From Escherichia phage BEU50: a stretch of DNA of 64,000 nucleotides. Positions 1 through 24,537 of this stretch are shown one piece after another (position 1 is the stretch's first letter; each line of letters opens with the position of its first letter). The stretch lies in sequence record OM632671.1. The stretch is one strand, 5' to 3'. The translations under genes were made by a program, and so were the position numbers. The notes under the pieces are model-generated. The model was not told where the DNA came from. It saw nothing but the letters and a program-made list of their open reading frames with translations, and did not search any database.

Positions 1-54
1 CCCTTTTTGCTTTAGATTTTGGATGATAGAATACCTTCATAACGAGGAGACAAC

Positions 55-1875
55 ATGATTAAAAATGAAATTAAGGTATTGTCAGATGTAGAACATATTA
101 AGAAACGTAGTGGTATGTATATTGGTTCTTCTGCTAAAGAAGCACATGAGCGTTTTTTGTTTGGTAAATATCAACAAGTTGAATATGTTCCTGGTCTGGT
201 TAAATTAATCGATGAGATTATTGACAACTCGGTTGATGAAGCTATTCGTACATCATTTAAGTTTGCAAATAAAATTGATGTGCAAATTAAAAATAATCAA
301 GTTTCGGTGGAAGATAACGGACGTGGTATTCCTCAAGGTTTAGTTACCGACCAAACGGGTGAACAAATTCCTGGGCCTGTAGCAGCCTGGACTATTCCAA
401 AGGCTGGTGGTAACTTTGGTGATGACTCTGAACGCAAGACTGGTGGTATGAACGGTGTAGGGAGTAGTTTAACTAATATCTTCTCTACGTTGTTTACAGG
501 CATCACGTCAGATGGCGAAAATGAAATCACTGTTAACTGTTCAAACGGAATGGAAAACAAATCATGGTCTTCTAAGAAATCTAAAGGTAAAGGCACTAAA
601 GTAATCTTCACTCCTGATTTCTCTTCATTTGAAGAGCATAATTTATCTCAAATTTATTTAGATATTACTTTAGACAGACTTCAAACATTGGCAGTCGTTT
701 ATCCTGATATCAAGTTCACATTTAATGGTAAAAAGGTTGATGGTAATTTTAAACGATTTGCTAAACAATTTGGTGAAGATAACATCATTCAAGAAAATGA
801 TAAAGTCTCTATAGCATTCACAACATCACCAGATGGCTTCCGTCATTTAACTTATGTGAATAACATCCATACTAAAAATGGTGGCCATCATGTTGAATGT
901 GTAATGGATGATATCTGTGAACATCTTTTGCCGGGTATTAAAAAGAAATATAAGGGTATTGAAGTCACTAAAGCTCGTGTTAAAGAATGCCTCACAATGT
1001 TGATGTTTATTAGAGACATGAGCAACATGCGTTTTGATTCTCAGACTAAAGAACGTTTAACGTCAACGTATGGTGATATTCGTAATCATATCCAATTAGA
1101 TGCTAAGAAAATTGCTCAGGCACTTCTTAAAAACGAAGCCTTGATTATGCCTATTGTTGAAGCAGCATTAGCTCGTAAATTGGCAGCAGAAAAGGCTGCA
1201 GAAACTAAAGCAGCTAAAAAGGCGACTAAAGCTAAGGTTCATAAGCATATTAAAGCTAACCAATGTGGTAAAGATGCAGATACGACATTGTTTTTAACAG
1301 AAGGTGATTCGGCAATTGGTTATCTCATTGATGTTCGTGACCGTGAACTACACGGCGGATTCCCATTACGTGGTAAGGTGATGAATAGCTGGGGTATGTC
1401 ATATGCTGATATGATGAAGAACAAAGAGCTCTTTGATATCTGTGCTATCACAGGTCTTATTCTTGGTGAAAAGGCAGAGAATACGAACTATCGTAATATT
1501 GCAATTATGACCGATGCCGATCATGACGGTCTTGGAAGTATCTATCCAGCTTTGCTTGCTTTCTTTAGTAATTGGCCTGAATTGTTTGAACAAGGACGTA
1601 TTCGCTTTGTTAAAACGCCTGTAATTATTGCACAAATTGGCAAAACTCAAAAATGGTTTTATACTGTAGCTGAGTATGAAGAAGCTAAAGATACACTGCC
1701 TAAGCATAGTATTCGATACATCAAGGGATTGGGCTCACTTCAGCGAGATGAATATAAAGAAATGATTCAAAACCCTGTGTACGACGTAGTTAAACTTCCT
1801 GAAAATTGGAAAGAACTATTTGAAATGCTCATGGGTAACGACCCTGAACTCCGTAAAGATTGGATGCTAGGATAA
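55..1875 (+). CDS. 39: DNA topoisomerase II large subunit, unsplit 39/60 form
   Basis: 606 aa ORF with RBS GAGGAG; GyrB-like ATPase N-terminus, Toprim motifs EGDSA and DADHDG. Confidence 0.9.
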   Translation: MIKNEIKVLSDVEHIKKRSGMYIGSSAKEAHERFLFGKYQQVEYVPGLVKLIDEIIDNSVDEAIRTSFKFANKIDVQIKNNQVSVEDNGRGIPQGLVTDQTGEQIPGPVAAWTIPKAGGNFGDDSERKTGGMNGVGSSLTNIFSTLFTGITSDGENEITVNCSNGMENKSWSSKKSKGKGTKVIFTPDFSSFEEHNLSQIYLDITLDRLQTLAVVYPDIKFTFNGKKVDGNFKRFAKQFGEDNIIQENDKVSIAFTTSPDGFRHLTYVNNIHTKNGGHHVECVMDDICEHLLPGIKKKYKGIEVTKARVKECLTMLMFIRDMSNMRFDSQTKERLTSTYGDIRNHIQLDAKKIAQALLKNEALIMPIVEAALARKLAAEKAAETKAAKKATKAKVHKHIKANQCGKDADTTLFLTEGDSAIGYLIDVRDRELHGGFPLRGKVMNSWGMSYADMMKNKELFDICAITGLILGEKAENTNYRNIAIMTDADHDGLGSIYPALLAFFSNWPELFEQGRIRFVKTPVIIAQIGKTQKWFYTVAEYEEAKDTLPKHSIRYIKGLGSLQRDEYKEMIQNPVYDVVKLPENWKELFEMLMGNDPELRKDWMLG

Positions 1876-2672
1876 TGAATTATCGTAAAATTTATGATAA
1901 ACTTATCGCTGCGGCTAAAAACCGCAGCATTATTCCTAATTATACTGAGACACATCATATATTGCCAAAATCTATGGGTGGGAGTAATGATAAATCAAAT
2001 CTAGTTAAAATGACCCCTAGAGAGCATTTTATCGCCCATTTATTGCTTTATAAAATTCATAAGAACCGTTCTATGCTTATGGCTATTAGAGCTTTTTACA
2101 TGGGAGCTAGAAATTCTAGAGATTATGATTGGCTTAAACAAGAATTCTCTAAAGAGCACTCTAGATTTATGAAAGAATGGATTGCTAAAAACGGCAACCC
2201 ATTTAAAGGTAAAAAACATACTAAAGCAACAAGAGAATTAATGTCACATATTGCTTCACAACGTATAGGCGAATTAAATCCATTTTATGGTAAAACTCAT
2301 ACGCAAGAAGCAATAGATAAAATAATACAGGCCAACAAGTTATCTTGGGAGAATGGGCGAAAAGCACCTGTAAAAACAAAAGAACACCAGGATAAAATAA
2401 CTAAATCAAGAATGGAAACATTTAAAACAAAAGGATTTAAACCATACACTCCTAGGTCGGAAGAAACTAAAGCTAAGACTAGAGAGTTGTATAAATCTAA
2501 ATATGAAAGAAGGCCTATAAGAATCACAAGTGTAAAAACAGGTGAAACTATTGATTTTAACTATCTTTATGAATTAAGAGAGTATTTAGATATAGGGTCT
2601 TCTAATATATTGAAAGCATTAAATAATCCTAACAGAACCTGCAAAGGTTATAAAATGTGTTGGATGTCCTAA
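1875..2672 (+). CDS. HNH homing endonuclease (I-TevIII/MobA-like)
   Basis: ATG overlaps gene 39 stop (TAATG); N-terminus MNYRKI shared with intron ORF at 28074; HHILPKSMGG HNH motif. Confidence 0.75.
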   Translation: MNYRKIYDKLIAAAKNRSIIPNYTETHHILPKSMGGSNDKSNLVKMTPREHFIAHLLLYKIHKNRSMLMAIRAFYMGARNSRDYDWLKQEFSKEHSRFMKEWIAKNGNPFKGKKHTKATRELMSHIASQRIGELNPFYGKTHTQEAIDKIIQANKLSWENGRKAPVKTKEHQDKITKSRMETFKTKGFKPYTPRSEETKAKTRELYKSKYERRPIRITSVKTGETIDFNYLYELREYLDIGSSNILKALNNPNRTCKGYKMCWMS

Positions 2673-2696
2673 GCTCCTTCGGGAGCTTCATTTTAA
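2672..2696 (+). terminator. rho-independent terminator hairpin AGCTCC-TTCG-GGAGCT plus T-run
   Basis: perfect 6 bp stem, UUCG loop, followed by TCATTTT. Confidence 0.6.
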
Positions 2697-2714
2697 TTTT
2701 AATAAGGCTTAATT

Positions 2715-3815
2715 ATGAAAGTTATGTTTATCCCATCTCGTGCAGTCCCATTTAATCCTGACCGTGTACAAGGTGGTCTTGAAGCGGTTCATTTGAACGT
2801 GTTGAAATATTTAGTTTCTATCGGTGCCGATATTGATTATATCGGCTTTGATAATGACACGTTTGGTGACTGGAAAGTTACACACCATCCTGTTGGTCAT
2901 CTGACTAAATTCAGTCTAGGTATGAGTTATACTATGGCTCGTAAGATTGTTGAACTAGCCGGCATCCATGAATACGATTTTGTTGTTACTATGGAACCGA
3001 CTAAACTAACCGTTCAGGCAATTAAAGACGCAGGTCTCTCTAAAGTTCATAAGAATTTTATGGCAACACCATTTGAACCAGTATCTCGTGGCATTGTTCA
3101 AATTTGGGACCAGACTATTCAAATTCATAAGAATGGCGGTAAGAGTTATGCTCCTACTAAAGCCTTCCGTGAATTTGAACGCAAATATTGTTATATGACT
3201 TCAGGTCTGACTGACAAAATCGATTATGATTATTGGCGAGCAAATCCGTTGTTTGAAGCCGAAGATTATCCGGTTATTTGTTTGACTGAAAAGCCAGAAG
3301 TTCTCCCGGCAACTGATTTGATTATTAGTGCTCAACGTTATGACACTAAGATGCGTCGCACTGATGTTGCTCTTGAAGCAATTAAAGCACTAGGCGAAAA
3401 TGGTGTAGGATACTGTCCTAGTAAATGGGCACCACCAGCTAAATATCCTGTTATTATTGATGCTCCACACAGTGAAATCATGGAACGTCTTAAAACAGCT
3501 AAAGCACTTATTAATACGTGTCCTGACACAGGTACGGTAGAGAATAGTTCTATTGAAGCCATCTCTAAAGGTGTCCCTGTAATCCAGTTAGTTTTTAAGG
3601 ATTATCCTCATGCGACATTTGAATACGACCCAGATACTGTGCGTGTAGAAATTGATTCCTCTACTCCTAAGAAAGAAGTAGTTGCGCTTTACACAAAAGC
3701 TGTATTAGAATTCACTGACACATACGAAGCTCGAGTTAAACGTGCTGAAGCAGTATGGAAGAAGTATAATCGAGATGCAGTTGTTGCGATGTGGGATAAA
3801 ATCTTCACAGCGTAA
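2715..3815 (+). CDS. hypothetical protein, possible GT-B type glycosyltransferase
   Basis: 366 aa ORF; C-terminal E-x7-EA-x3-G-x-PVI pattern (ENSSIEAISKGVPVI); not at a position of any T4 gene I recognise. Confidence 0.5.
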   Translation: MKVMFIPSRAVPFNPDRVQGGLEAVHLNVLKYLVSIGADIDYIGFDNDTFGDWKVTHHPVGHLTKFSLGMSYTMARKIVELAGIHEYDFVVTMEPTKLTVQAIKDAGLSKVHKNFMATPFEPVSRGIVQIWDQTIQIHKNGGKSYAPTKAFREFERKYCYMTSGLTDKIDYDYWRANPLFEAEDYPVICLTEKPEVLPATDLIISAQRYDTKMRRTDVALEAIKALGENGVGYCPSKWAPPAKYPVIIDAPHSEIMERLKTAKALINTCPDTGTVENSSIEAISKGVPVIQLVFKDYPHATFEYDPDTVRVEIDSSTPKKEVVALYTKAVLEFTDTYEARVKRAEAVWKKYNRDAVVAMWDKIFTA

Positions 3816-3831
3816 ATCCTGAATAGCCTGA

Positions 3832-3882
3832 GGCACTATTACACATAAGATGATAGATTATATGGTCTTTAGTAATAGTGCC
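3832..3882 (+). other. long stem-loop (11 bp perfect stem, about 29 nt loop)
   Basis: GGCACTATTAC ... GTAATAGTGCC inverted repeat in the intergenic gap; no T-run. Confidence 0.4.
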
Positions 3883-3907
3883 CTAGGAATCTACTGAAGA
3901 GAATATT

Positions 3908-4108
3908 ATGAGAACATATAACGTGGACTTGGAACTTTTTGATAAAGCAGTGCTCCGGGAATTCCGGCTTATCCAAAGATTTTTTGATATCGAATCAGCA
4001 GAGTCCTTTAAAGAACGCTTTAAAGAAATTCGATATAAAATACAAACCGATACAGCTACTAAAGAAGAACTTCTTGAAGTAGCAGAAATTTTTAAACGTA
4101 ACTTGTGA
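3908..4108 (+). CDS. small hypothetical protein (rIIA.1 position)
   Basis: 66 aa ORF with ATG and upstream purine-rich RBS. Confidence 0.5.
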   Translation: MRTYNVDLELFDKAVLREFRLIQRFFDIESAESFKERFKEIRYKIQTDTATKEELLEVAEIFKRNL

Positions 4109-4120
4109 TGAGAGAAAAAC

Positions 4121-6178
4121 ATGATTATCGAAACGGCTAAAGAAACGATTATTGGTTCTGGTGGTAAGAGCACAGCATTCACTATTCAAGGCAATAGCAA
4201 AGTTTATAAGATTTTGTCTAATGACCTTTATACAAACAAAGAATTGGCTTGTGTACGTGAATTAATCACAAACTGTATCGATGGACAAATTCTTAATGGT
4301 TGCACTGATAAGTTTATTGTTCAGGCTCCAGGTCGTTTAGACCCACGTTTTGTAGTTCGAGACTTTGGTCCTGGTATGAGTGATTTCACCATTCGAGGTA
4401 ATGACGAAGAGCCAGGAATCTATAACTCATATTTTGCTTCAACTAAAACATCGAGTAATGATTTCATTGGTGGATTCGGACTCGGCTCTAAAGCTCCATT
4501 AGCATATACTGATACGTTTAACATTACTTCTTATCATAATGGTGAAGTTCGTGGTTATGTAATTTATCAAGATGACAGTGGTCCACAAATTAAGCCAACC
4601 TTTGTAGATAAGATGGGCCCTGATGACCGTACGGGTGTAGAAGTAGTTGTGCCTGTTAACCCGGAAGATTTTGAAAAGTTCGCATCTGAAATTGCGTATG
4701 TTATGCGTCCTCTCGGCGATATTGCAGAAGTTCGTGGTGTTAAAGATATCAAATACTTCCCGGAATTCGATGATGTTTATTTAGCCAAGGAAGCTCCATG
4801 GGGTGAACGTGGTAATATCATGGCTGTTTATGGTGGTATTGTATATCCAATCGGAAGTGTTATTAAAGAACAAACATGGATGATGACGCGATGCACTACA
4901 GCTTATATCAAATTCCCTATGGGTGAACTAGATGTAGCCCCGTCTCGTGAAGCATTGTCATTTGATAAACGTACAGTAGCAAATATTCATAAACGTGTTG
5001 CAGAAATTGATGCAAAATTATTTGCTGAAGATTCTAAGAAATGGATTGATTGTGAATATCCACGTCATGTATTCCGTGAAATCGATTCTCTTGGTTACTC
5101 TGCTCGTAAATACATGGAAAAAGCCGGTTCTAATATTGAATCACTGAAATATTCTAAAGAACAACTAACTTATTCTGAGTTGTACAAACGTTTTAAAATG
5201 GGACCTGAATGGTGCAACCTTGGCGTTGTATATGATATCGTTTCAGATCCACGACTTCGTCGTATTCGTGAAAGCGGAAGCTCGTCTGCAACTATTTCAA
5301 TTAATAGCCTGCTAGGTATTAGTCGTAAGCATATTGATATTGTTATTGACGATGTGAAAGGCCGCGTACCAATGATGCGTGCTCTGAACGATGCTTTGAC
5401 TTCCACCGATGCATCAACACTCGTTGATAAGGTTCCTTCCGGACGGGGTAGTAGCGTATTATTCATTAACCCGGAAGATGAAGTTGCAATGAAACTTCTG
5501 GAACGATTAAAGGTTATTTTCGCTGGTGATAGCCTTAAATTTTATAAGACCTCTGAAATTCTTGCATTAGTTAAACCATGGATTGAAGTTAAAGAACGTT
5601 CATCGCAGCCTCGTCCTAAATCCCCAAGTGCTCATCGGTTCTTTAAGAATGAAAACGATGTTTGGGTATCAGAAGATCTCTTTATTCCGGCCGGTAAAGC
5701 TGATGAGATTCAAGGTTATGTTGTAATTCGTAATCGTTCTAACGCTGAATGTCTTGACGCAGATAAAGGTTGGTTGAACTATGATTCTAATTTCTTGACT
5801 CGTATTGCTGATTTGTCAGGTATTAAAGAGTTCACTGTAGTCCGTCCACAGATTGCTAAGAAAGTTCGTAAACTTGGTGAAGTAGAATGCTTGTTCGAAA
5901 AATCAATTAATGACTATATTACGCTAATTGATAAAGTGGATTATGATGAGTATGTATCACCAAGTCGTAGAGCACAGCCTTATTTGAATCATATTACTCG
6001 TAACGAAGAGCTTAACTTCCTTAGTAAGTATTTTAGCTCTAAGAACAAAGAAATCAGTAAAGACTTTGCAAAACTCTCAACAGTAAATAATCGCTGGGGA
6101 TGGAATCGATTCGCAGGTGCTGATAACAGAGACCTGAACAGGAAGTTAGAATTGTGCTTAAAGAGGACTCTTTTGTAG
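4121..6178 (+). CDS. rIIA: rIIA membrane-associated protein, 3-prime end ends at a junction
   Basis: 685 aa; GHKL-like boxes ([19 protein letters not shown]); about 40 aa shorter than T4 rIIA as I recall it. Confidence 0.85.
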
Positions 6179-6429
6179 ACCCAGAAATTTTCTACGGTTT
6201 GCGTGCCCGTGAAATTGAAATTGAGCCACAACCTACAGTTAAAATTGAAGGTGGTCAACACCTGAACGTTAACGTTCTGCGTCGTGAAACTCTGGAAGAT
6301 GCAGTTAAGCATCCGGAAAAATATCCGCAATTGACTATCCGTGTATCCGGTTATGCAGTTCGCTTTAACTCTCTGACTCCGGAACAGCAGCGCGACGTTA
6401 TCGCTCGTACCTTTACCGAGAGTTTGTAA
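6154..6429 (+). CDS. GrcA/YfiD-like autonomous glycyl radical cofactor, 5-prime end probably truncated
   Basis: C-terminal RVSGYAVRF glycyl-radical motif, near-identical to E. coli GrcA C-terminal half; only a GTG start available. Confidence 0.75.
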
Positions 6430-6650
6430 TGGCAAAGATAATTATTGAAGGTTCTGAAGATGTGCTAAATGCTTTCGCCGAGTGGTTTAGTAATTCAGGT
6501 GAACAACAATTTAATGAAGCGTGGAATATGGGTGATATTGATGGAATTTATCCTACGACAGAAATTTCTGTTCAGGGATATGGCATTCATGAACCTATTC
6601 GTTTAGTTGAATACGATTTATGTACTGGCGAGGAAGTCAAATATGATTGA
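6429..6650 (+). CDS. hypothetical small protein (vs.5 position)
   Basis: 73 aa ORF, ATG overlaps upstream stop. Confidence 0.5.
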   Translation: MAKIIIEGSEDVLNAFAEWFSNSGEQQFNEAWNMGDIDGIYPTTEISVQGYGIHEPIRLVEYDLCTGEEVKYD

Positions 6651-12359: not shown

Positions 12360-12590
12360 GTGAGTGAGTCGAAGAGAATCAATATGAAACGATTAGTATT
12401 AGAAGTTAGTCCGCTTTTTGGTGAATTGGCTATAGAAAAAGTAAATAACATGTATCGTTTGACGCAAGAAGACGATATGCTATATTTTACGCCTAGTGAA
12501 ATCATTCATTTAACCCAAATTGAATATCCTTATACTGATAAAATAGTAAGTATCAATGATGAGCACAAAATTCATTGCTCGTTTGATTGA
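12360..12590 (+). CDS. hypothetical small protein
   Basis: 76 aa; GTG start 8 nt after AAGGAG (alternative ATG at 12384). Confidence 0.4.
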   Translation: MSESKRINMKRLVLEVSPLFGELAIEKVNNMYRLTQEDDMLYFTPSEIIHLTQIEYPYTDKIVSINDEHKIHCSFD

Positions 12591-12680
12591 AGTTGAAGCC
12601 CAAATTGCAGAACACACCAAATTGTTAAAAGCTCTTAATGCAAAAGCAAATGGTTTACGTAATGCTATTGAGGTATTGAA

Positions 12681-12995
12681 ATGAAAAAGCGTCTATTAGA
12701 AGACATTGCAGCTTCAAGTAATTCCAGTTTAATTAAAATTATTATGGCCGGTGAAGAAGACGATCTGGAAATGCGTGGAAAGATTTATGGTTGTGATGAT
12801 TATAGCAGCCCTATTAATTGGGATTCTGTAATGGTCATGGTTGAACGTCGCGAAAGGGCTTCTAAAAACGTTCCTAATTGCCCTGAATGTGGAACTGAAC
12901 AGGTGCAATTAGTCCATTGGCAGACTAATAATCTTCGTTATAAATGTCGCCATTGTAAACACCGATTTGACCGAGAAGAAAATGACAAAGCGTAA
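12681..12995 (+). CDS. hypothetical zinc-ribbon protein
   Basis: 104 aa; CPECG…CRHCKH. Confidence 0.5.
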
Positions 12996-13224
12996 AGAAT
13001 ATATGGAGACCGCCGAAAAGGCAGTCCGTGAATTAGCAATAGCTTATTATAATGAACACGGTAAATTTCCTGATAGATACAGCGTGCTTAAATCTGCTTT
13101 AACTCGTTCATATAAAAATATGCTATCAGAAGTAAGTGATATTATATACAAACATAAAGAACAAACGGGCCAAAGTCTTGATTACGACGAGACTTTTAAA
13201 CAAGTACTAGGAATTAAGGAATAA
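12982..13224 (+). CDS. hypothetical small protein
   Basis: 80 aa from ATG 12982. Confidence 0.45.
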
Positions 13225-13225
13225 T

Positions 13226-13489
13226 ATGTTTAAAGTATATGGTTATGATAGCAACATCCATAAATGTGTGTATTGCGATAATGCAAAACGTCTTTTGACC
13301 GTGAAGAAACAGCCGTTTGAATTTATCAACATTATGCCGGAAAAAGGTGTTTTTGATGATGAGAAAATCGCTGAGCTTCTGACTAAACTAGGTCGTGATA
13401 CTCAAATCGGCTTAACAATGCCTCAGGTATTTGCTCCTGATGGAAGTCATATTGGTGGATTTGACCAATTGCGGGAATACTTTAAATGA
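13226..13489 (+). CDS. nrdC: glutaredoxin/thioredoxin NrdC
   Basis: 87 aa; CVYC active site. Confidence 0.85.
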   Translation: MFKVYGYDSNIHKCVYCDNAKRLLTVKKQPFEFINIMPEKGVFDDEKIAELLTKLGRDTQIGLTMPQVFAPDGSHIGGFDQLREYFK

Positions 13490-13701
13490 TTCTCGAAGGA
13501 ACTGATTATATCCATGATTACCGCGGAAGCGCGGTATATGTAGGTGATGAAGTTGCAGTTTACTACGGGTATGGAACTTTGATGACAGCCAAGGTTATTC
13601 AAATTAAAAATAATCGTGCTAAACTCGAAGTTTATTATTCTAACGGCGAAAAGTCTATTTCTAAGTGGAAATACGGCGATTGTATGGTCAAACTGGGGTA
13701 A
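13486..13701 (+). CDS. hypothetical small protein
   Basis: 71 aa, ATGA overlap with nrdC stop. Confidence 0.45.
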   Translation: MILEGTDYIHDYRGSAVYVGDEVAVYYGYGTLMTAKVIQIKNNRAKLEVYYSNGEKSISKWKYGDCMVKLG

Positions 13702-13703
13702 AT

Positions 13704-13874
13704 ATGATTTACGATATTAGTGCAGCAAGAGCTCCATCAATGGTTGCTATTCCAGCTGAAGAATTAGATCGTCTTCATAAAATTGAAGAACTTCTGTGGG
13801 AAATTGAATCTGATTTGCCATCAGGATTAGAATCCTGGATTGATTATGAAGAACTTAATAAGCTTCGGGGTTAA
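13704..13874 (+). CDS. hypothetical small protein
   Basis: 56 aa from first ATG of the 13665 ORF. Confidence 0.3.
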   Translation: MIYDISAARAPSMVAIPAEELDRLHKIEELLWEIESDLPSGLESWIDYEELNKLRG

Positions 13875-13996
13875 ACCCTGGTGGGCGGCTAGATGGGAAA
13901 CTGTAGAGCCAGAGCCGGAAGAACCGGTTTACACTGATGAAGAAACAGTATATAATGAACCAACGATAAATGACTTAATTGATATGGAGATGGGAC

Positions 13997-14482
13997 ATGA
14001 TTACAGTAGATAAGTGGTTTAGAATTAATCGTGTTGATACAGGGCTATGTAATTACTGGCCGGAACTTAGTGCAGGTACTGTCTTTAAAGTTCGTGAACT
14101 TGCAAAAGAATGTGAAGATGATATAGAACCTGATACTGGAATTATTGAAATTGAACTTTCTGATGGAAAGATTATTAACATCTATGATAAGCCAATTACG
14201 TATTGGTGCTTGTGGAATACTGAATCCGTTGAAAATGGCGAAATTGAAGAAGTTGTAGAGAGAACTAGCCAAGATGCTCAGAAGCCTAAAGCCGCTTTTC
14301 AAGGTGAACGTATTTCATACGCATTAGCTAAATTAGCTGCACAAGAAAATAACGATGGTTATGAAGGAAATTTAATGCAAGCTGCCGCAGAGTACATTGA
14401 ATGGCTTGAAACTCAAATTTCTTTTTCTGACCAAATGATTCGGCAATATAAGCGATTGCATCAAATGTTTTACAATACTTGA
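13997..14482 (+). CDS. pin: Pin-like protein (protease inhibitor position)
   Basis: 161 aa from ATG 13997 with RBS GGAGA; length and position match T4 pin. Confidence 0.55.
   Translation: MITVDKWFRINRVDTGLCNYWPELSAGTVFKVRELAKECEDDIEPDTGIIEIELSDGKIINIYDKPITYWCLWNTESVENGEIEEVVERTSQDAQKPKAAFQGERISYALAKLAAQENNDGYEGNLMQAAAEYIEWLETQISFSDQMIRQYKRLHQMFYNT
14408..14482 (+). repeat. direct repeat copy A (3-prime end of pin)
   Basis: two sub-blocks (26 nt and 48 nt) recur at 14483-14510 and 14648-14695. Confidence 0.75.
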
Positions 14483-14695
14483 AAAAACTCAAAATTCTTT
14501 TTCTGACAAGGCATTTTAATGAAAACCGAATTGGTTTATACTGAAAAGTTAAATGGCGGTAAGGTTTGGAAACTTTTTATTAAAGGACATTCTACGGACC
14601 CTCATATGACCACTTGCGTAGGAACCTATTCTCGTCCTACTAAAAAGATGATTCGACAGTATAAACGATTGCATCGAATGTTTTACAATACTTAA
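14483..14695 (+). repeat. direct repeat copy B flanking a 58-codon ORF
   Basis: AAAAACTCAAAATTCTTTTTCTGACA at 14483 and ATGATTCG…TACAATACTTAA at 14648. Confidence 0.75.
14519..14695 (+). CDS. hypothetical small protein sharing Pin C-terminal 15 aa
   Basis: 58 aa ending MIRQYKRLHRMFYNT, the same tail as the pin ORF. Confidence 0.4.
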   Translation: MKTELVYTEKLNGGKVWKLFIKGHSTDPHMTTCVGTYSRPTKKMIRQYKRLHRMFYNT

Positions 14696-14704
14696 ATAAT
14701 AAAT

Positions 14705-14735
14705 ACCCTTATCTATTTAAGGTAAGGGTTTTATT
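14705..14735 (+). terminator. hairpin plus T-run before gene 49
   Basis: ACCCTTA … TAAGGGT stem followed by TTTTATT. Confidence 0.5.
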
Positions 14736-15209
14736 ATGTTATTGACTGGCAAATTATACAAAGAAGAAAAACAAAAATTTTATAATGTACAAAACGGTAA
14801 ATGCTTAATTTGCCAACGAGAACTAAATCCTGATGTTCAAGCTAATCACCTTGACCATGACCATGAATTAAATGGACCAAAAGCAGGAAAGGTACGTGGA
14901 TTGCTTTGTAATCTCTGCAATGCTGCAGAAGGTCAAATGAAGCACAAATTTAATCGTTCTGGCTTAAAGGGTCAAGGTGTTGATTATCTTGAATGGTTAG
15001 AAAATTTACTTACTTATTTAAAATCCGATTACACCCAAAATAATATTCACCCTAACTTTGTTGGAGATAAATCAAAGGAATTTTCTCGTTTAGGAAAAGA
15101 GGAAATGATGGCCGAGATGCTTCAAAGTGGATTTGAATATAATGAATCTGACACCAAAACACAATTAATAGCTTCATTTAAGAAGCAGCTTAGAAAGAGT
15201 TTAAAATGA
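14736..15209 (+). CDS. 49: endonuclease VII (Holliday junction resolvase)
   Basis: 157 aa; CLICQ…CNLC zinc site plus HLDHDHE. Confidence 0.85.
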   Translation: MLLTGKLYKEEKQKFYNVQNGKCLICQRELNPDVQANHLDHDHELNGPKAGKVRGLLCNLCNAAEGQMKHKFNRSGLKGQGVDYLEWLENLLTYLKSDYTQNNIHPNFVGDKSKEFSRLGKEEMMAEMLQSGFEYNESDTKTQLIASFKKQLRKSLK

Positions 15210-16027
15210 ATGTAGTATATAAACTATCATTTATTAATAGAATTAATGCTAAAACCCCACCATATTATTACATTGGAAGTAAAACCAATTGCACTTTTGA
15301 TGGAACGAATATTATTGATAAAAATGGTAAATTTTATTATTCGTCTTCGTCATCTTCTGAATTTCAAAAAGCCTTATTGAAAGAAACGCCGAAAGTTGAA
15401 ATATTATATTTTCAATTAGTCGGAGATGAACAAATAACTAGCATTGAAGCTGAATTTCAAAAGAATATAGAAAAAGATGTATGGAATAAAGAGTATTTTA
15501 ATTTAGCATATGCTGATGGCAAATTTACGACATATGGTATTTCTCCTTCTAAAGAAACTAGAGAAAAGCAATCAATAACCATGATTAAAAGAAATCGTAA
15601 TAAAGGCAAAAATCATGGATTTTATGGAAAGCATCATACTAATTTAGCTAGAAAGAAAATATCAGAAGCTTCTAAAAAATACTGGAAAGAAAATCCACAT
15701 CGTGGATTTTCGCATACAAAGGAAGCTAAAATTAAAATTGGAATTTCATCTTCTATCAGGCATAAAGGAAGTGGAAATCCGATGTATGGTGTAAAACCTT
15801 GGAAAACTCCGAGCGCAATTAAATCTGGTACTTGTATATTATGGTTAAAATACGCAGAAATTTTATATGATTATTTAAGTCCAGATTTTAAAAGTAAATC
15901 ATCTATTTTTGCGGATTTAAACTTACCGAAATTTAGAATTGATAATTTCATCAAAAGGTTTAAAATGGGTTGGAACCCATATTTAGACGAAGAATTTCAA
16001 AAGGATAAATTAGAATTATGTCTTTAG
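15206..16027 (+). CDS. GIY-YIG/NUMOD-type homing endonuclease-like protein (seg-like)
   Basis: 273 aa; VVYKLS…YYYIGSK and repeated GxxHT/NPMYG NUMOD-like motifs; inserted between 49 and nrdD. Confidence 0.6.
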   Translation: MNVVYKLSFINRINAKTPPYYYIGSKTNCTFDGTNIIDKNGKFYYSSSSSSEFQKALLKETPKVEILYFQLVGDEQITSIEAEFQKNIEKDVWNKEYFNLAYADGKFTTYGISPSKETREKQSITMIKRNRNKGKNHGFYGKHHTNLARKKISEASKKYWKENPHRGFSHTKEAKIKIGISSSIRHKGSGNPMYGVKPWKTPSAIKSGTCILWLKYAEILYDYLSPDFKSKSSIFADLNLPKFRIDNFIKRFKMGWNPYLDEEFQKDKLELCL

Positions 16028-17016
16028 AAAAAGATGTTTTAAATTTTATTTCAAATAAAGATAAAGAATTAAATACAGAAAACGCCAACAAAGATTCTCG
16101 CGTCTTTCCAACAAAAAGAGATTTAATGGCCGGTATTGTTTCTAAACATATCGCTTGTCGTATTCTTCCAAGTCATATTGTAAATGCCCATAATGTTGGA
16201 TTAATTCATTTTCATGATTTAGATTACAGTATATCATTGCCTTTTACTAATTGCTGTTTAGTAGATTTAAAAGGAATGCTTGAGAACGGGTTTAAGCTCG
16301 GTAATGCACAGATTGAAACTCCTAAATCAATCGGTGTTGCTACTGCAATTATGGCACAAATTACTGCACAGGTTGCTTCTCACCAATATGGCGGAACTAC
16401 ATTTGCTAATGTCGATAAAGTACTTTCTCCTTATGTTAAACGCACCTATGCAAAACATATCGAAGACGCAGAAAAATGGCAAATCGCCGATGCGTTAAAT
16501 TATGCTCAATCTAAAACAGAAAAAGACGTATACGATGCATTCCAAGCTTATGAATATGAAGTAAATACTCTCTTTAGTTCAAACGGACAGACTCCTTTTG
16601 TAACAATTACATTTGGTACAGGAACTGACTGGACTGAACGAATGATTCAGAAAGCAATTCTGAAAAATCGTATTAAAGGTCTTGGTCGTGATGGGATAAC
16701 TCCTATTTTCCCTAAGCTTGTTATGTTTGTTGAAGAAGGTGTTAATCTTTATAAAGACGATCCGAACTATGATATTAAGCAGCTTGCTCTAGAGTGTGCA
16801 AGCAAAAGAATGTATCCTGATATTATTTCAGCTAAGAACAATAAAGCTATCACTGGTTCATCTGTTCCTGTTTCTCCAATGGGTTGCCGTAGTTTCTTGG
16901 GCGTATGGAAAGATTCGACTGGTAATGAAATTCTTGATGGACGTAATAATCTTGGCGTTGTAACACTGAATCTTCCTCGCATCGCGTTAGATTCTTATAT
17001 TGGAACACAGTTCAAT
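16018..17016 (+). pseudogene. nrdD: anaerobic ribonucleotide reductase NrdD, 3-prime truncated (N-terminal ~333 codons only)
   Basis: NrdD-like sequence to …[17 protein letters not shown]; remainder of the ORF to 17103 is reverse complement of gene 37 start; no glycyl-radical C-terminus. Confidence 0.8.
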
Positions 17017-17150
17017 CCTGAGTCATCTTTTGTGAAAATTGTTTTATCTTTTAAGTTTATAGCCAATTCACCTTCGGCTAATACTGAAGCAGCAGGACGT
17101 TGACCTGCAGTTTTGCTTCTTTTAAATTGTATTTGTTTTAAAGTAGCCAT
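16995..17150 (-). pseudogene. 37: long tail fibre distal subunit gene 37, 51-codon N-terminal stub
   Basis: [13 protein letters not shown]…TKDDSG then LNCVPI-stop; gp37-like only to codon 45. Confidence 0.75.
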
Positions 17151-17158
17151 AAGTCCTC

Positions 17159-17809
17159 TTAATAATAGCCGAAATCTTGAACAGAATCCTTAATTACGAT
17201 TTGGTCAAATCGTGGAACGTGTGAAGGTTGAGATGCAGGATTCTGTGAAAAAAGGTTTGGCGCAGTTAAATTTCCTGTCATAGTGTCTCCAGAGCGTAAT
17301 ACCCTAGAGTTTGCATTTGCTGTAACAGTATTTATTGCTCCATCAACATAATCTTTACGAGTAGCATCTGATGCTGCGGAAGGAGTAGATGTAACAGTTA
17401 CAGATGGAGCCGTTACAGCTTTGGTAAATGTTGTCAAACCTTCTGGCGTAATAGTAATTTGTCCAGTAGTGATTTCACTACCTGCTGGTCTAAAACTAAT
17501 ACCGCCAGAAGAGCCACCAACTACAAGAGTATTACCAGTGCCGCCACCAGAACGAATTCGGATGGGGGTTTCATTATTACTTAATTGAAGATAACTATTT
17601 ACACCATAATTAATAGTAACTGGGCCTGTGTAAGTACCACCAGTAGATTTAGAAACGAAATCATTATCAGCTGCCTGTGGTTTATTATATTCTGAATATA
17701 TTTTAAATGATTTGTAGAGTACATCGTCACCGGCTGAATTCAACGGAAAATTTCCTTGATGCCAAATGACAGATCCACCTACAGTTGAACCTCCTTTTAA
17801 ATCAGCCAT
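17159..17809 (-). CDS. 36: long tail fibre subunit gp36
   Basis: 216 aa; N- and C-termini match gp36 as recalled. Confidence 0.9.
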
Positions 17810-17832
17810 AGTATGCCCATTTATTTTAATAT

Positions 17833-17840
17833 TATTTATA
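17833..17840 (-). promoter_or_regulatory. late promoter TATAAATA
   Basis: TATAAATA on minus strand 24 nt upstream of gene 36 ATG. Confidence 0.6.
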
Positions 17841-17842
17841 AA

Positions 17843-17866
17843 GAAAAAAGGAGCCCGGCGGCTCCC
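17843..17866 (-). terminator. hairpin GGAGCC-GCCG-GGCTCC plus T6 (minus strand)
   Basis: between gene 35 stop and gene 36 late promoter. Confidence 0.6.
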
Positions 17867-17871
17867 TCAGT

Positions 17872-18987
17872 TTAAACTTCTCTAAATTCCTGTCCAAACA
17901 CTTTACCAGTTTTAGACGATGCCTGTGTAGGAAGTACCATTATATCTGGAGGTGAAGCCGATTCACAGACATAATTAACGCGAATACCATTGACGCCAAA
18001 TTCGGCAGGTTTTGAAATGCCGCCATTTCTTGATACTTCAGAAAAGCTTAAATTTCTCATACCGCCTTGACCCGCTTGGGCGGTTCTCTGTGTGTATATC
18101 GTAAATCCTACTGCATTTTCAGGAACAACTACATAATCTTCTTTTAATTCCCAAGACCCAGCTTGCCCAGTAAACTCAGCTTGGGTCGAGGAAATATATC
18201 CATTTGATGCATCATAAAAACGAATAGATATATTTGCAGTTCCAAGATCAAGTAAATCAGCATCAGCATATAGTTGTGCTTTAAGATAAAGAACATCACC
18301 AGGAATTAAATTGTAGTCAGAAAGTTTACTTATAGCAGCTGAAGTTGGTAAACGCGCAATTTCATTATTAGTTCCACCAACCGCAGACATAAATTGCTCA
18401 ACGCTTTCGTATGTTCTTTTAGGAAATCCTGTAGCTCCGACGTCTTCTAAACTATCAAATACAACATCTAAAATAGTTTGATAATCATCTGTGCTTTTTC
18501 TATTACTTAGTTTAACATGCTCTAATGCAATAGCTCTTTTAGAAGAAGTATAAAAAGCAGCATATGACACGTCAAATCTTGACAATACTGAATCTGATGG
18601 AAAAACTGAAGTTCCTGCTCCCCTTAACCAAGATACCACTTCAGGAGGAAAATTAACCTTTCCGCTAGTTAATATAGCAACAAGTCTATTGTTTGACAAA
18701 GAATTCATGAAACTGACAAAAGTGGTAGATGTTGTATTGTTTGAAGCAGAAAAAGCATATGACTTACTATCAACTAATGCTCCCGTAGAAGGGTCAAAAA
18801 CTCTTAAATGAAGACCTGCACTAAATGTTTGATTTCCAACGGGATTATCCTGAAATTTAACATATGGTCCCGCAGTAGAAAGCGGGCAAGAACCCGCTAT
18901 GCTTATTTTATATCTTACTGAATTGCTTTCCGATAAAAATGGCGTTTGGACATATCCTTGTCCAAACTCTGCCATAAATTTTTCCAT
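17872..18987 (-). CDS. 35: long tail fibre hinge protein gp35
   Basis: 371 aa; position and length. Confidence 0.85.
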   Translation of the reverse strand: MEKFMAEFGQGYVQTPFLSESNSVRYKISIAGSCPLSTAGPYVKFQDNPVGNQTFSAGLHLRVFDPSTGALVDSKSYAFSASNNTTSTTFVSFMNSLSNNRLVAILTSGKVNFPPEVVSWLRGAGTSVFPSDSVLSRFDVSYAAFYTSSKRAIALEHVKLSNRKSTDDYQTILDVVFDSLEDVGATGFPKRTYESVEQFMSAVGGTNNEIARLPTSAAISKLSDYNLIPGDVLYLKAQLYADADLLDLGTANISIRFYDASNGYISSTQAEFTGQAGSWELKEDYVVVPENAVGFTIYTQRTAQAGQGGMRNLSFSEVSRNGGISKPAEFGVNGIRVNYVCESASPPDIMVLPTQASSKTGKVFGQEFREV

Positions 18988-18995
18988 AATACCTC

Positions 18996-21900
18996 TTATT
19001 CAACCCATTCAAATTTAACAGTTTTATTCACTGGGTCAGGAATAATGCGAACATTACCAATTCGTAAGAAATCACGAATAGTAAGATTACCTATTATTCC
19101 ATTATCAGATGGGATTGCTCCTATATCCGAAGGTTGAGGAGGATTACCTCCATCGAATACCTGAACAAAACTTGACCAAGAGTTTTTGGTTTTCTGCCAT
19201 GTACGTGTCCAGCGAGTGGTACGTGCTTCTGGGGTCGTTGGATAAGTAATCCAATCTTGGTAAAGTGAATCAAGTGTGTTACCAAACTGAGTCAATGTAC
19301 CAGGAGATTTAACTTCTTCACCGCGTTCTAAATATGGAAGTCCAGTCACTTCATTAGTTTTTTCAACCATTTTAAAATAACCCGGGAACTGGTTATAAGT
19401 GGCTGAATCATTAATATCGATTGACCAGAATCCTACAGTATCAGATGTTGGCGCACGGGTATATAAATCAGATGTTTTAACACCTTGAGAACGAATTCTC
19501 GAGTTAACAGTTAAACCGCCTGAACTTATAGTAGCACCTTTTGCAATGATTAAGCTTTCACCAATCGTTACTTGGCCAGATGCATTATTAATAGATAAAG
19601 GACGTAATCCATTAAATCCGCCAGTTTGATCACCCGATGCAGTAAGCATAAAATTCGTTACTGACCCATCATTGCGAACAATGAAACCATAATTTCCGTT
19701 AATAGCACGGAAAGCATTTGCGCTTCGAGAAATAATTTCACCAGTTGCAGTGACTGAATTACCAAATGTTGCTACACCATTTGCATTCAATGTTCCTGAA
19801 GCATTAACATTTATCGGTGTTACTGTACCGTTGATATTAAATGTTATATTTCCAGCTTTATTACGCTGAGAATAAAAATGACTAGACGTTTCATCACTAA
19901 CTTCAAATACGGTAGAACGTGTTGTGTCTGATTCCCCACTAAATTGATTTCCCCACACTCTGACTGTCATCGTTTGAGCCGGGTTTGTTCCAGTTTGAGG
20001 TCCTTTCTCAAAAATCAATCGAGTTGCCGTTCCAGTATTAGAAATAGTTAATGTACTATTTGCTGAAACTGATCCACCGAATGTAGCAGTACTAGATGAT
20101 ACAAGAGGGGCACTCAGATTCGTTTGTTGGGTTAAGGTTAGTGAACCATTAACTGTTTGTGCAATGTCCCTACGAATGAACTGGAGCGAATCTAGACCAT
20201 CTAATAAATTACTATCTACAGCTTTTGCTTTTAATGGCAAATAATTTGCTAATACGCGATTTAATTCATATGGTGATACTGCATAACCATTTTTCTCATA
20301 TGATTCTAATGGTTGTGTTGAACCTACCGTATCATTACCAACGAATGTAATTGAACCAGATGAAGTTTTAACAAACCCTCTTATCAGAGTAGTTGCTGCC
20401 CAAGTTGGTTCACTCTGCACAATCCATTTTAAATTTTTTGGAGATACAGCAGTATTTGCTGATGTTCCAGTCACAGTTTCAGACTGAGTTGCAACTTTAA
20501 TAACACCTTCCTGTGCTTCAGTAGATTTAGTACCTAAAAGCTTTTTAGGAGTTATTAAAACATTATCTAATGTTCCTGCAGCAGCTTCAACTTGTGTAGC
20601 TACACGAAGTGTACCACGCTGTGTCTCATTTGCTTCAAGAATATTAAGTGTATAATGGTCCCAGAGAGTTCCTGATTCAACTAATCCAGATAGAGCAACA
20701 ACAGAAGTACGATCAGTACTATTAAATCTAGTTTTAATTTTTAATGGTGTAGAGATGCGAGTATCGTCGACGCCTGCGTCGAATTCAACTTGCGTAGCAA
20801 TTTCAGCTATACCACTTAAACTTTCAGTTGCTCTACGGTCATTTAAAGTTTTAGGAGTGACTGCACGAGTATAGTCAGTTCCTGTGTTAACTTCACTTTG
20901 CGTAGCAATTTCAATTAAACCAATTCTTCCATCAGTTGATGTCTTTTTATGTAACGTTTCTGGCGTTACAACCGCATTTGCCCATCCTTCTTGGCTTTGT
21001 CCAGCAATTACTTCACTTTCAACTGCTAAAATTACTGCGCCTTGTTGCGTTGGAGTAGCTTTATACTGATCCAAAGCTTTAGGTGAAACAACTAAATTAT
21101 TAGTGTTTTTATTATAAACATTCGTACCATTTAATTCACGGCTAGAAGCTGGAGTAGCTCCTGCAGTAGATACATAAGTTACAATACCAGATAATGATTC
21201 AGAACCTTGGCGAGCTTGAAGCTTTTTAGGAGTGATGATTGTAGTATCATCAGTACCTGTATTAGTTTCCTGCTGCGTAGCAATTTCAGCGACACCTCTA
21301 CGAGTTTCTGTAGCAGTTCTTTCATTCAGCTTTTTAGGAGTGATGATAAGGTCATCTGCAAAAGAGAATGTGGTGTTCTGATTCACTTGAGCAGTAGTTG
21401 CTATTCTTGCAATACCTCTGCGAGTTTCTGTAGCAGTACGATTAGCTAACGTTTCTGGAGTAATTGCTAATTCTTTTTGTGGAGAATTTTCTAAATCAGC
21501 ATTTGCTTGAGCTTGCGTAGCTAAAGCAATTACGCCTAATCTTGCTCTAGTAGAAGCATTTAAAGAGTCTACTCTTTCTACAGTTGGAACGTTTTGCTGT
21601 ACAACCCAGCATTTTCCATCAGAATCTTCTATATAAGCAAGTTGTAAAACTGGAACATAATTAGTTTCACCGTTAAAAACTAATTCTTGAACTGTTACCC
21701 ATTCAGCTTCAGGCGGATATTCTGAACGTTTTGGGAATTGCAGCAATTGAACTGAGGAAGCAATTTTATCTTCACCTGCAGCTTTGATTTTAACTGTTTG
21801 TCCTTTTCTCATGTAATTCATGGAAATTTTAACAGTATCACCAACAGAAATATCAGTCGGAAGCTGAAGTTCAATTGTTTGGGTTGTTCCATTATTCGCG

Positions 21901-22865
21901 CCAAATACCATGACTTCTTCATTTGGACGAATATTAGAATTAGTTGTTATAATGCGTAAACGTGCTTTACTATCCCCGTCAAACAATCTCCACAATTTCT
22001 CATTATCATCAAACATCAAGAAACCGTCAATCGATGTACGGCCTTCAATGGAATGAGTTCCAACTTCTTGCACTGACGTTGTTTCATCATATGTCGTAAC
22101 AATTGTATGATAAAGTGGATTTAATTTATCTAAATCAACGAAATTAATGATATCTCCATGATTGGCAAATCTTGGAAGCTTAACATTAATCGGCGCGGCA
22201 GAAGTAAATCTACGTACGATAAAATCATTAGATTGTGCTTGATATGCAGTCGATGGAGTAACAATCGCAGCTTCTCTGCTATAATCAGCAATATACATTT
22301 GCCACAAACGATTATTAAAAATGAATACCATCTGTGACTTTGGATGAGTCATTAAAACTGAACGTACCTGTTCACCTCTAAAATTGACAATACTCTGATT
22401 TGAAGAATTTATTTTAACCTGATTTATGCCAGGTTTTCCACCGATATCTTGAATTATTACGGTTTCTCCATCAAGCGGAGAAGGTGGTAAAGTAAACTCA
22501 ATGTCATTGCCAACTGATGTATCTACTGAAATTGCTTCTCCGGATTTTAATTGATATGGTCCAGATGATACGGTTGTATATACAGCATCAGTACGTAATG
22601 CTTTCCAACGAATTCTATTAAAATTTCCAGCAGGTTTTGGAATATTATCCGTTGCTGCCCAAAAACGATTATTATAAATGATTACAAAATCTTTTAAATA
22701 TCCACGAGTTGGATCATATTGCTGAACTGTGTTTTCTTGAATTAAGTAATCAACGTTAACACCGTCAGTTCCTACGGTACGATCAGCTAAAGCTACGTTG
22801 ATTATTTTATCGCCACCTGCGTCCAGACCATCTTCTGCTCTGAACTTTCTTTTAATCTCGGCCAT
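18996..22865 (-). CDS. 34: long tail fibre proximal subunit gp34
   Basis: 1289 aa with internal repeats; divergent from rnh. Confidence 0.9.
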   Translation of the reverse strand: MAEIKRKFRAEDGLDAGGDKIINVALADRTVGTDGVNVDYLIQENTVQQYDPTRGYLKDFVIIYNNRFWAATDNIPKPAGNFNRIRWKALRTDAVYTTVSSGPYQLKSGEAISVDTSVGNDIEFTLPPSPLDGETVIIQDIGGKPGINQVKINSSNQSIVNFRGEQVRSVLMTHPKSQMVFIFNNRLWQMYIADYSREAAIVTPSTAYQAQSNDFIVRRFTSAAPINVKLPRFANHGDIINFVDLDKLNPLYHTIVTTYDETTSVQEVGTHSIEGRTSIDGFLMFDDNEKLWRLFDGDSKARLRIITTNSNIRPNEEVMVFGANNGTTQTIELQLPTDISVGDTVKISMNYMRKGQTVKIKAAGEDKIASSVQLLQFPKRSEYPPEAEWVTVQELVFNGETNYVPVLQLAYIEDSDGKCWVVQQNVPTVERVDSLNASTRARLGVIALATQAQANADLENSPQKELAITPETLANRTATETRRGIARIATTAQVNQNTTFSFADDLIITPKKLNERTATETRRGVAEIATQQETNTGTDDTTIITPKKLQARQGSESLSGIVTYVSTAGATPASSRELNGTNVYNKNTNNLVVSPKALDQYKATPTQQGAVILAVESEVIAGQSQEGWANAVVTPETLHKKTSTDGRIGLIEIATQSEVNTGTDYTRAVTPKTLNDRRATESLSGIAEIATQVEFDAGVDDTRISTPLKIKTRFNSTDRTSVVALSGLVESGTLWDHYTLNILEANETQRGTLRVATQVEAAAGTLDNVLITPKKLLGTKSTEAQEGVIKVATQSETVTGTSANTAVSPKNLKWIVQSEPTWAATTLIRGFVKTSSGSITFVGNDTVGSTQPLESYEKNGYAVSPYELNRVLANYLPLKAKAVDSNLLDGLDSLQFIRRDIAQTVNGSLTLTQQTNLSAPLVSSSTATFGGSVSANSTLTISNTGTATRLIFEKGPQTGTNPAQTMTVRVWGNQFSGESDTTRSTVFEVSDETSSHFYSQRNKAGNITFNINGTVTPINVNASGTLNANGVATFGNSVTATGEIISRSANAFRAINGNYGFIVRNDGSVTNFMLTASGDQTGGFNGLRPLSINNASGQVTIGESLIIAKGATISSGGLTVNSRIRSQGVKTSDLYTRAPTSDTVGFWSIDINDSATYNQFPGYFKMVEKTNEVTGLPYLERGEEVKSPGTLTQFGNTLDSLYQDWITYPTTPEARTTRWTRTWQKTKNSWSSFVQVFDGGNPPQPSDIGAIPSDNGIIGNLTIRDFLRIGNVRIIPDPVNKTVKFEWVE

Positions 22866-22899
22866 TCTCCCGGGCTCCTATTGTGTTTTCAATAATAAG

Positions 22900-22907
22900 T
22901 ATTTATA
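22900..22907 (-). promoter_or_regulatory. late promoter TATAAATA
   Basis: 35 nt upstream of gene 34 ATG on minus strand. Confidence 0.65.
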
Positions 22908-22910
22908 CTT

Positions 22911-22940
22911 GTTTACTTTAAGATTTAGATAGTATATAAT
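22911..22940 (+). promoter_or_regulatory. T4-type early promoter
   Basis: GTTTAC, 18 nt, TATAAT upstream of rnh; -10 flanked by AGATTT/AAATCT dyad. Confidence 0.65.
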
Positions 22941-22969
22941 AGAAATCTCACTAATTGAACGAGGTTCAT

Positions 22970-23887: not shown

Positions 23888-23895
23888 GGTGAATA

Positions 23896-24165
23896 ATGGC
23901 TAAAAAAGAAATGGTTGAATTTGATGAAGCTATCCATGGCGAAGACTTGGCTAAATTTATTAAAGAAGCATCTGATCATAAACTGAAAATTTCCGGTTAT
24001 AATGAACTGATTAAAGATATTCGAATTCGTGCTAAAGATGAACTTGGCGTTGATGGTAAGATGTTTAATCGTCTATTAGCTTTGTATCATAAAGATAACC
24101 GTGATGTGTTTGAAGCTGAAACTGAAGAGGTAGTTGAACTTTATGACACAGTTTTCTCTAAATGA
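23896..24165 (+). CDS. dsbA: dsDNA-binding protein DsbA
   Basis: 89 aa, position between rnh and 33. Confidence 0.8.
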   Translation: MAKKEMVEFDEAIHGEDLAKFIKEASDHKLKISGYNELIKDIRIRAKDELGVDGKMFNRLLALYHKDNRDVFEAETEEVVELYDTVFSK

Positions 24166-24481: not shown

Positions 24482-24537
24482 TTAAACTCCGCATGCCTGC
24501 TGGTGGTGAAAGATACATTGATGGTAAATCAGTTTAG
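24478..24537 (+). pseudogene. 59: helicase loader gene 59, 19-codon N-terminal stub
   Basis: [19 protein letters not shown] then TAG; downstream sequence is not gene 59. Confidence 0.6.

Follow-up and report, generated by a model that had tools for sequence, protein, structure and literature searches.

The T-even rIIA/rIIB locus provides protection from prophage-induced early lysis, and the T4 rII mutation r1589 is a small local deletion in one genome that creates an in-frame rIIA-rIIB fusion. Natural shuffling of modules among T4-type phages involves intergenic promoter/stem-loop cassettes and co-conversion by homing endonucleases. Another well-known family is that of the autonomous glycyl-radical "spare parts" for oxygen-cleaved pyruvate formate-lyase, of which E. 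coli GrcA (YfiD) and T4 Vs.6 (Y06I) are the two validated proteins (PMC8683613). The N-terminal half of the spare part is needed to bind the cleaved enzyme and to install the radical efficiently (PMC8683613).

At the locus described here, both genes are ordinary members of these families, present as fragments. In the window, by which we mean the whole stretch of DNA that was analyzed (64,000 nt), an rIIA gene with rIIA.1 upstream, as in the T-even rII locus, runs into an ORF that has the Gly_radical domain in common with GrcA and Y06I. Unlike the known rII locus, however, the last 58 codons of rIIA are lost and there is no rIIB in the window; and unlike GrcA/Y06I, the ORF is devoid of the first 30 of 120 residues, of its own start, and of its ribosome-binding site, which makes it a fragment and not a variant. 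The locus resembles r1589 in that rIIA is broken and joined to a downstream gene without its start, but here the partner belongs to a different genus and its locus is about 100 kb distant in T4-type coordinates, the fusion is out of frame, and the join is one of four. A simple deletion in one genome was rejected on two of these points, namely the different genera of the two sides and the distance of the partner locus. The features at the junction are the following.

4121 to 6156, plus strand: Mosigvirus rIIA, codons 1-679 of 737, truncated at the 3' end, 99% amino acid identity to RB69 rIIA.
6140 to 6145, plus strand: AGGAAG, a Shine-Dalgarno-like motif read from the sequence, 8 nt upstream of GTG 6154.
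6154 to 6429, plus strand: 91-aa ORF with a GTG start, which overlaps rIIA in a different frame.
6157 to 6178, plus strand: junction base and rIIA tail, consisting of an orphan C, then six out-of-frame foreign codons (LKRTLL) and TAG from vs.6 DNA.

Two shortened genes at the junction

The rIIA ORF extends from 4121 to 6178 and encodes 685 aa, with a TAG stop at 6176-6178, and the ORF list and the sequence bear out the length and end given for it in the initial annotation. The estimate that accompanied them, of a protein about 40 aa shorter than that of T4, needs correction, as the product is 52 aa shorter than that of the nearest relatives (RB69, 737 aa). BLASTP with RB69 rIIA returned 677 identities over 681 positions, and collinearity stops past residue 679 (...RKLELC), after which six unrelated residues precede the stop. 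The gene has lost 58 native C-terminal residues and gained six foreign ones. In RB69 and a20, rIIA likewise lies downstream of rIIA.1, continues for these 58 residues to a total of 737 aa, and is followed by rIIB within about 10 nt. The rIIA of the window is not a full-length one (725-737 aa and collinear with relatives to the C-terminus), no rIIB follows it in the same transcription unit, and tblastn with the Sf21 and a20 rIIB proteins did not find this gene within the 64-kb window. Additionally, the exact 685-aa product had no match in public assemblies.

On the other side of the junction, positions 6158-6429 are vs.6 (GrcA/Y06I) of Tequatrovirus, beginning at the second base of codon 31 and extending to codon 120 and the stop. 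The vs.6 gene measures 363 nt and the match begins 91 nt into it, so 30 codons and 1 nt are absent. The 91-aa product aligns to residues 31-120 of the 120-aa Vs.6/GrcA of fPS-2 and is 97% identical to Tequatrovirus vs.6 over these residues; it contains the Pfam domain Gly_radical (PF01228, E=1.5e-18) and the sequence RVSGYAV, that is, a C-terminal glycyl-radical domain with the RVxG motif. The match to the C-terminal half of GrcA recognized in the initial annotation was therefore well founded, and, measured against a complete GrcA protein (about 120-127 aa with the N-terminal half), it is residues 1-30 of 120 that are absent. The last 189 nt of the ORF also show 95.8% DNA identity to the chromosomal grcA of complete E. 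coli genomes.

The frame check agreed that the ORF contains no in-frame ATG and opens only inside rIIA, since stops close the frame up to 6123 and the first possible start is GTG 6154. It has neither a start of its own nor its native upstream context, with vs.7 immediately upstream. Every grcA-like homologue examined is 120 aa long, begins with its own ATG (MKAYQILEG...), and has vs.7 upstream. In 10 of 10 further contigs, vs.6 is likewise a 120-aa, ATG-started gene located after vs.7, and six of these, which have an identical RegB and come from NCBI genomes and ENA metagenome assemblies, carry vs.7, the 120-aa Gly_radical gene, genes of 73, 88, and 92 aa, and regB. The genes on the 3' side of the 91-aa ORF are vs.5, vs.4, vs.3, regB, vs.1, vs, tk.x, and tk. 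This gene order, together with tblastn over the whole window, supports the earlier assignment of what follows to the vs/regB/tk region and not to rIIB/denB/ndd.

A natural arrangement would require a lineage in which a shorter rIIA adjoins a GrcA that truly starts at GTG 6154. The AGGAAG located 8 nt upstream of the GTG and the intact glycyl-radical domain (RVSGY) are consistent with such a gene, but in the alignment both AGGAAG and GTG 6154-6156 are native rIIA coding sequence with the same bases in RB69. Because of this, the apparent start is regarded as an accident: as read from the alignment, the GTG is in frame with vs.6 by an accident of the join, and any function of AGGAAG is putative. 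Furthermore, the relatives all have a 737-aa rIIA followed by rIIB and a 120-aa, ATG-started vs.6 after vs.7, and at the junction the DNA changes genus within 2 nt. A natural origin for this gene pair is extremely unlikely, and a naturally short rIIA next to a GTG-started GrcA was rejected on the alignments with RB69, a20, fPS-2, Maryam, four IMG/VR contigs, and the six identical-RegB contigs.

The break at 6156/6157

When the rIIA C-terminus and the grcA-like ORF were aligned with their homologues, similarity stopped at 6156 and resumed at 6158. In the three-way alignment the switch is blunt (...GAATTGTG, then C, then TTAAAGAGG...). The C at 6157 is matched by neither parent, both having T there, and the parents share no sequence and no k-mer at 6156/6157. 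In a megablast search of 50,697 phage records, window positions 4000-6156 were 96-98% identical to Mosigvirus genomes of the RB69 type, and among the matches listed, those to the top-ranked records with rIIA ended exactly at 6156; the DNA match ends at nt 179 in RB69 and at nt 72,781 in a20. In the same search, positions 6158-6450 matched vs.6 of T2/T4-like Tequatrovirus at ~98%. The right-hand match starts exactly at 6158 in 734 phage records, four IMG/VR contigs, and the six identical-RegB contigs, the last of which match the window from 6158 only and never beyond 12576. A boundary this constant is not due to chance. None of the 50,697 records covers both sides of this join. According to the alignment and the tile map described below, genus identity changes from Mosigvirus to Tequatrovirus within 2 nt, and 6156/6157 is, as judged from these comparisons, a non-homologous breakpoint between DNA of two T4-type phage genera. 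The initial annotation was right that each gene flanking the junction had lost an end, namely the last 58 codons of rIIA and the first 30 of vs.6, and neither of the two observations named there as refuting this was made.

It is important to consider whether the site has the features of known module exchange. Unlike T4-type modular shuffling, the join at 6157 lies inside two coding sequences and is devoid of homology and of promoter or stem-loop motifs. The scan for promoters and terminators at 6157 gave promoter-like hits at chance level and no promoter or stem-loop motif above chance, and a regulatory cassette at the join was rejected on this basis. A break common to the 113-kb "complete" Tequatrovirus record Maryam was also considered and rejected, as the vs region of Maryam is normal.

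Segment map, cut genes, and missing genes

Local BLAST and a 500-nt tile map were made with a20 and RB69 (Mosigvirus) and fPS-2, Sf21, and Maryam (Tequatrovirus) as references. In the tile map, positions 1-6156 are 95-100% identical to a20 with no Tequatrovirus match, while from 6157 to about 27,700 the tiles are 95-99% identical to Tequatrovirus and either match a20 at only 70-90% or do not match it. The remainder of the window, to 64,000, is again Mosigvirus, a20-like (about 99%) and collinear with a20. The left part is composed of the following segments.

1 to 6156: segment A, Mosigvirus, with gp39, a NUMOD3 homing endonuclease, ORF003, rIIA.1, and truncated rIIA; 98.8% identical to a20 in one ungapped HSP.
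6157 to about 12574: segment B, Tequatrovirus, with truncated vs.6, vs.5-3, regB, vs.1, vs, tk.4-1, tk, the rI region, and truncated mobD.
About 12575 to 17016: segment C, Tequatrovirus, from the last 35 codons of the nrdC.x gene through pin and 49 to truncated nrdD.
17017 to 24536: segment D, Tequatrovirus, with gp37 codons 1-45 only (minus strand), 36, 35, 34, rnh, dsbA, 33, and gp59 codons 1-19.
24537 to about 27,770: segment E', Tequatrovirus, with nrdA.2 (last 42 codons), nrdA.1, nrdA, and the start of nrdB.

The four Tequatrovirus pieces are non-adjacent and amount to 21.5 kb, and they stand where the a20 map has about 28.5 kb, from the 3' end of rIIA to nrdB. Segment B is 96.5-97.6% identical to fPS-2 and to the contigs spanning it, and about 6.6 kb found in fPS-2 is missing at the join between segments B and C. 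The nrdD gene of segment C has no intron and breaks off some 150 codons after the start of exon 2, and it covers Pfam NRDD positions 1-293 of 562. Segment D matches Sf21 at 96.5% in one HSP, and its start is 99.7% identical to Sf21 and RB3.

The initial annotation had suspected that the rIIA junction was one of several, and four blunt, orientation-preserving joins were found, at 6157, about 12574, 17016, and 24536. All eight gene ends at these joins (8/8) lie inside coding sequence. The first join cuts rIIA at 679/737 and leaves vs.6 from codon 31; the second cuts mobD after aa 68/181 and leaves the last 35 aa of the nrdC.x gene; the third retains about half of nrdD and 45/988 of gp37; and the fourth retains 19/217 of gp59 and nrdA.2 from aa 46. 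The join at 12574 has 3-4 nt of microhomology and the other three have 0-1 nt. Microhomology-mediated events usually show a direct repeat of 5 nt or more at both end points, which is not seen here, and recombination of this kind was rejected after inspection of the parental sequences, which share only 0-4 nt at the four joins.

The joins also appear to be unique to this sequence. None of the four is bridged by a phage record, and BLAST against complete E. coli genomes, which matched only through chromosomal grcA, gave no genome that bridges the first. Junction 24- to 40-mers from all four joins were not present in viral_contigs (IMG/VR), and the 24-mer of the first junction was found neither in metagenome_contigs nor in genome_contigs; as a positive control, an internal vs.6 26-mer retrieved four viral contigs, in all of which vs.6 is full length. 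The exact gp34 product of the window had no match in public assemblies, and a literature search on Mosigvirus/Tequatrovirus chimeras found nothing relevant. Hallmarks of a natural T-even gene-order variant, such as an indel in a hyperplastic region, are lacking: the ends do not fall at gene boundaries or in intergenic cassettes, and the junction is not common to other isolates.

The switch from Tequatrovirus back to Mosigvirus on the right, at about 27,700-27,770, falls within nrdB exon 1 where the two parents resemble each other, some 200 nt ahead of the intron that carries the endonuclease gene. Located at about 27.7 kb beside an intron and a homing endonuclease gene, it fits T4-type modular shuffling and, from its sequence context, looks like genuine homologous recombination. 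Given this homologous-type switch, some of the mosaic could be real.

Productive T4 infection requires gp32, gp37, gp38, t, motA, and asiA. A tblastn search of the window with Sf21 and a20 proteins found neither rIIB, denB, ndd, gp52, motA, and asiA, nor t, gp38, and gp37 past residue 45, nor gp32, gp59 past residue 19, frd, td, and nrdG. The window includes the normal neighborhood of the absent gp32, gp37, gp38, t, asiA, motA, and gp52, and essential genes are consequently not retained within these 64 kb. Genes 37 and 59 are physically split. The arrangement cannot be a working phage gene order unless intact copies exist elsewhere, in which case the split genes would still be non-functional remnants. 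Because essential genes are removed, a patchwork is favored over evolutionary deletion. The initial annotation had noticed neither the different genera of the two sides nor the removal of essential genes.

Origin of the joins and consequences for annotation

From the cuts that ignore gene boundaries, the lack of homology, the removal of essential genes, and the uniqueness of the joins to this sequence, we infer that the joins were most likely made outside a phage; the breakpoints, the parents of the two sides, the truncations, and the gene absences are themselves shown by the comparisons. The sequence is probably a patchwork, in which contigs from a sample with phages of the two genera were concatenated or mis-joined, or which arose by some other in silico or in vitro splice. 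The left parent would be an a20/RB69-like Mosigvirus genome cut within rIIA and the right parent T2/T4-like Tequatrovirus DNA cut within vs.6, so that the short rIIA and the grcA ORF without a start would be simply two cut ends, for which a biological mechanism is unnecessary. This pattern is like that of chimeric or concatenated phage contigs, with an abrupt change of parentage, arbitrary cuts in genes, missing essential genes, and junctions present in one record only. It differs from graph-based mis-joins, as there is no shared k-mer here, and from usual scaffolder output, as there are no N spacers. The shared k-mer of a graph-based assembly chimera (at least about 21 nt) is absent at the joins, and a de Bruijn-graph mis-join or ordinary short-read chimera is therefore unlikely. 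Random ligation is disfavored because the direction of transcription is conserved across all four joins, for which chance alone would give a probability of 1/16; this suggests that a person or a process ordered the pieces and that they were not joined at random. The best-fitting route would be to concatenate contigs in consistent orientation with no N spacers between them; other conceivable routes are N-free scaffolding, manual editing, or a long read that is itself chimeric.

A real molecule, arising by illegitimate recombination in a mixed infection with Mosigvirus and Tequatrovirus, would have its essential genes outside the window or would be a defective genome with a helper. Several observations are compatible with it: the homologous-type crossover in nrdB at about 27.7 kb, beside an intron-borne homing endonuclease, is expected of T-even crosses; orientation is preserved at all joins; the quality of the consensus is good; and near the break there is a 7-nt microhomology with vs.6 (TTAAAGA), as the rIIA of RB69 and a20 has GCTTAAAGA 19 nt past it. 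This last match is treated as chance, however, because its use requires a second deletion, of 19 nt. Moreover, four independent illegitimate events within 25 kb would be needed, each with 0-4 nt of microhomology, and no junction is common to any relative. The split of gp37 after 45 codons and of gp59 after 19 would leave no functional long tail fibers even if the remainders were located elsewhere, and gp32, motA, asiA, t, and 38 are not present where they would normally lie. We consider such a molecule unlikely. The more specific proposal that the sequence is a faithful record of an inter-genus hybrid formed by repeated non-homologous joining, in which the chance AGGAAG-N8-GTG drives a shortened GrcA, is very unlikely.

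A deliberate construct, that is, an engineered or synthetic T-even genome or an in silico splice with segments cut and pasted, would also give blunt joins that keep orientation and are unique to this sequence. Nevertheless, no design logic is visible, as the cuts fall within codons and essential genes are lost, and inspection of the sequence at the joins revealed no restriction-site pattern, vector, scar, or marker. By its sequence alone, such a construct would look the same as careless concatenation. We regard deliberate construction as quite unlikely, and concatenation or mis-joining of contigs from a mixed sample as the preferred explanation.

The main value of these results is as a quality flag on the left 25 kb of the window. 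This region is unsuitable for inferring T-even gene order, gene loss (rIIB, gp32, and the tail-fiber genes), or new gene fusions, and the short rIIA and short GrcA are not to be annotated as variants. The junction should be filed as not a real biological feature, and a natural gene arrangement should be denied. If the joins were real, they would show, unusually, that illegitimate recombination between genera of T-even phages had occurred several times, although rIIA and vs.6 at this junction would still be broken remnants and not a new system. On a real DNA molecule, rIIA would probably have no activity and rIIB would be gone as well, and rII-mutant behavior would be expected of the phage. GTG 6154 behind the chance AGGAAG might then at best yield a 91-aa GrcA fragment that keeps the whole glycyl-radical domain without the 30 N-terminal residues, and its function would probably be impaired, as it would be devoid of half of the N-terminal region with which E. 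coli YfiD binds damaged pyruvate formate-lyase.

Finally, a 1-nt deletion frameshifts nrdB within its conserved ALEAIRFYVSFA motif, a minor sign that the consensus is not free of errors. Apart from this it is clean, and indels relative to the references are few.

Truncated genes at the second, third and fourth joins

Beyond the join of rIIA to vs.6, three blunt joins interrupt genes in the window:
12572-12576: second join, Tequatrovirus mobD to an nrdC.x gene
17016/17017: third join, nrdD to gp37, on opposite strands
24536/24537: fourth join, gp59 to nrdA.2

At the second join, Tequatrovirus mobD retains only amino acids 1-68 of 181 and is followed, out of frame, by the final 35 codons of the nrdC.x gene. 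Approximately 6.6 kb of the sequence of fPS-2, a Tequatrovirus reference, is missing at this position, and the junction was not found in any of the phage records or viral contigs searched. At the third, nrdD is cut ~150 codons into exon 2 and directly abutted by gp37 codons 1-45, encoded on the other strand; the remainder of 37 is absent from the window, together with 38, t, asiA, motA, 52, ndd, denB and rIIB. The fourth leaves gp59 ending after codon 19 and nrdA.2 beginning at codon 46, with the loss of gp32, frd and td, a span of ~5.2 kb in the Tequatrovirus Sf21.

The same nrdD lacks, at 16553-16556, the ~1-kb intron and homing-endonuclease insert that interrupts the gene in fPS-2, and is a clean intron-less allele.

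Sequences flanking the rIIA/vs.6 break

In the rIIA of the Mosigvirus references RB69 and a20, GCTTAAAGA lies 19 nt downstream of the breakpoint; it is identical to the window sequence spanning the join (6156-6164) and overlaps vs.6 by TTAAAGA. An origin in this sequence would account for the orphan C at 6157, a base matching neither parent, but because an additional 19-nt deletion would be required, we judged the match to be a coincidence. Farther into vs.6, the phage GrcA/Y06I gene, the 3' 189 nt (6245-6433) share 95.8% DNA identity with the chromosomal grcA of 5,426/5,426 complete E. coli genomes, a similarity consistent with recent acquisition of this 3' half from the host.

Parental switch and frameshift in nrdB

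The change from Tequatrovirus-like to a20-like sequence occurs at ~27,700-27,770, in a part of nrdB exon 1 where the parents resemble each other; the nrdB intron, with its endonuclease ORF (28074-28883), lies ~200 nt farther downstream. The switch has the appearance of homologous exchange or co-conversion, not of a blunt splice. Exon 1 is also frameshifted by a 1-base deletion at 27903, relative to both a20 and Sf21, within the conserved ALEAIRFYVSFA motif; this deletion reflects either an error in the consensus or a mutation that inactivates the gene.

A stretch absent from a20 in the gp23-gp24 region

Upstream of gene 24, ~930 nt of the window (61737-62671) have no counterpart in a20. This stretch carries the following ORF:
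62015-62674: 219-aa ORF, weak SegE GIY-YIG match (E=8.7e-4, below the Pfam cut-off)

This ORF probably encodes a free-standing homing endonuclease.
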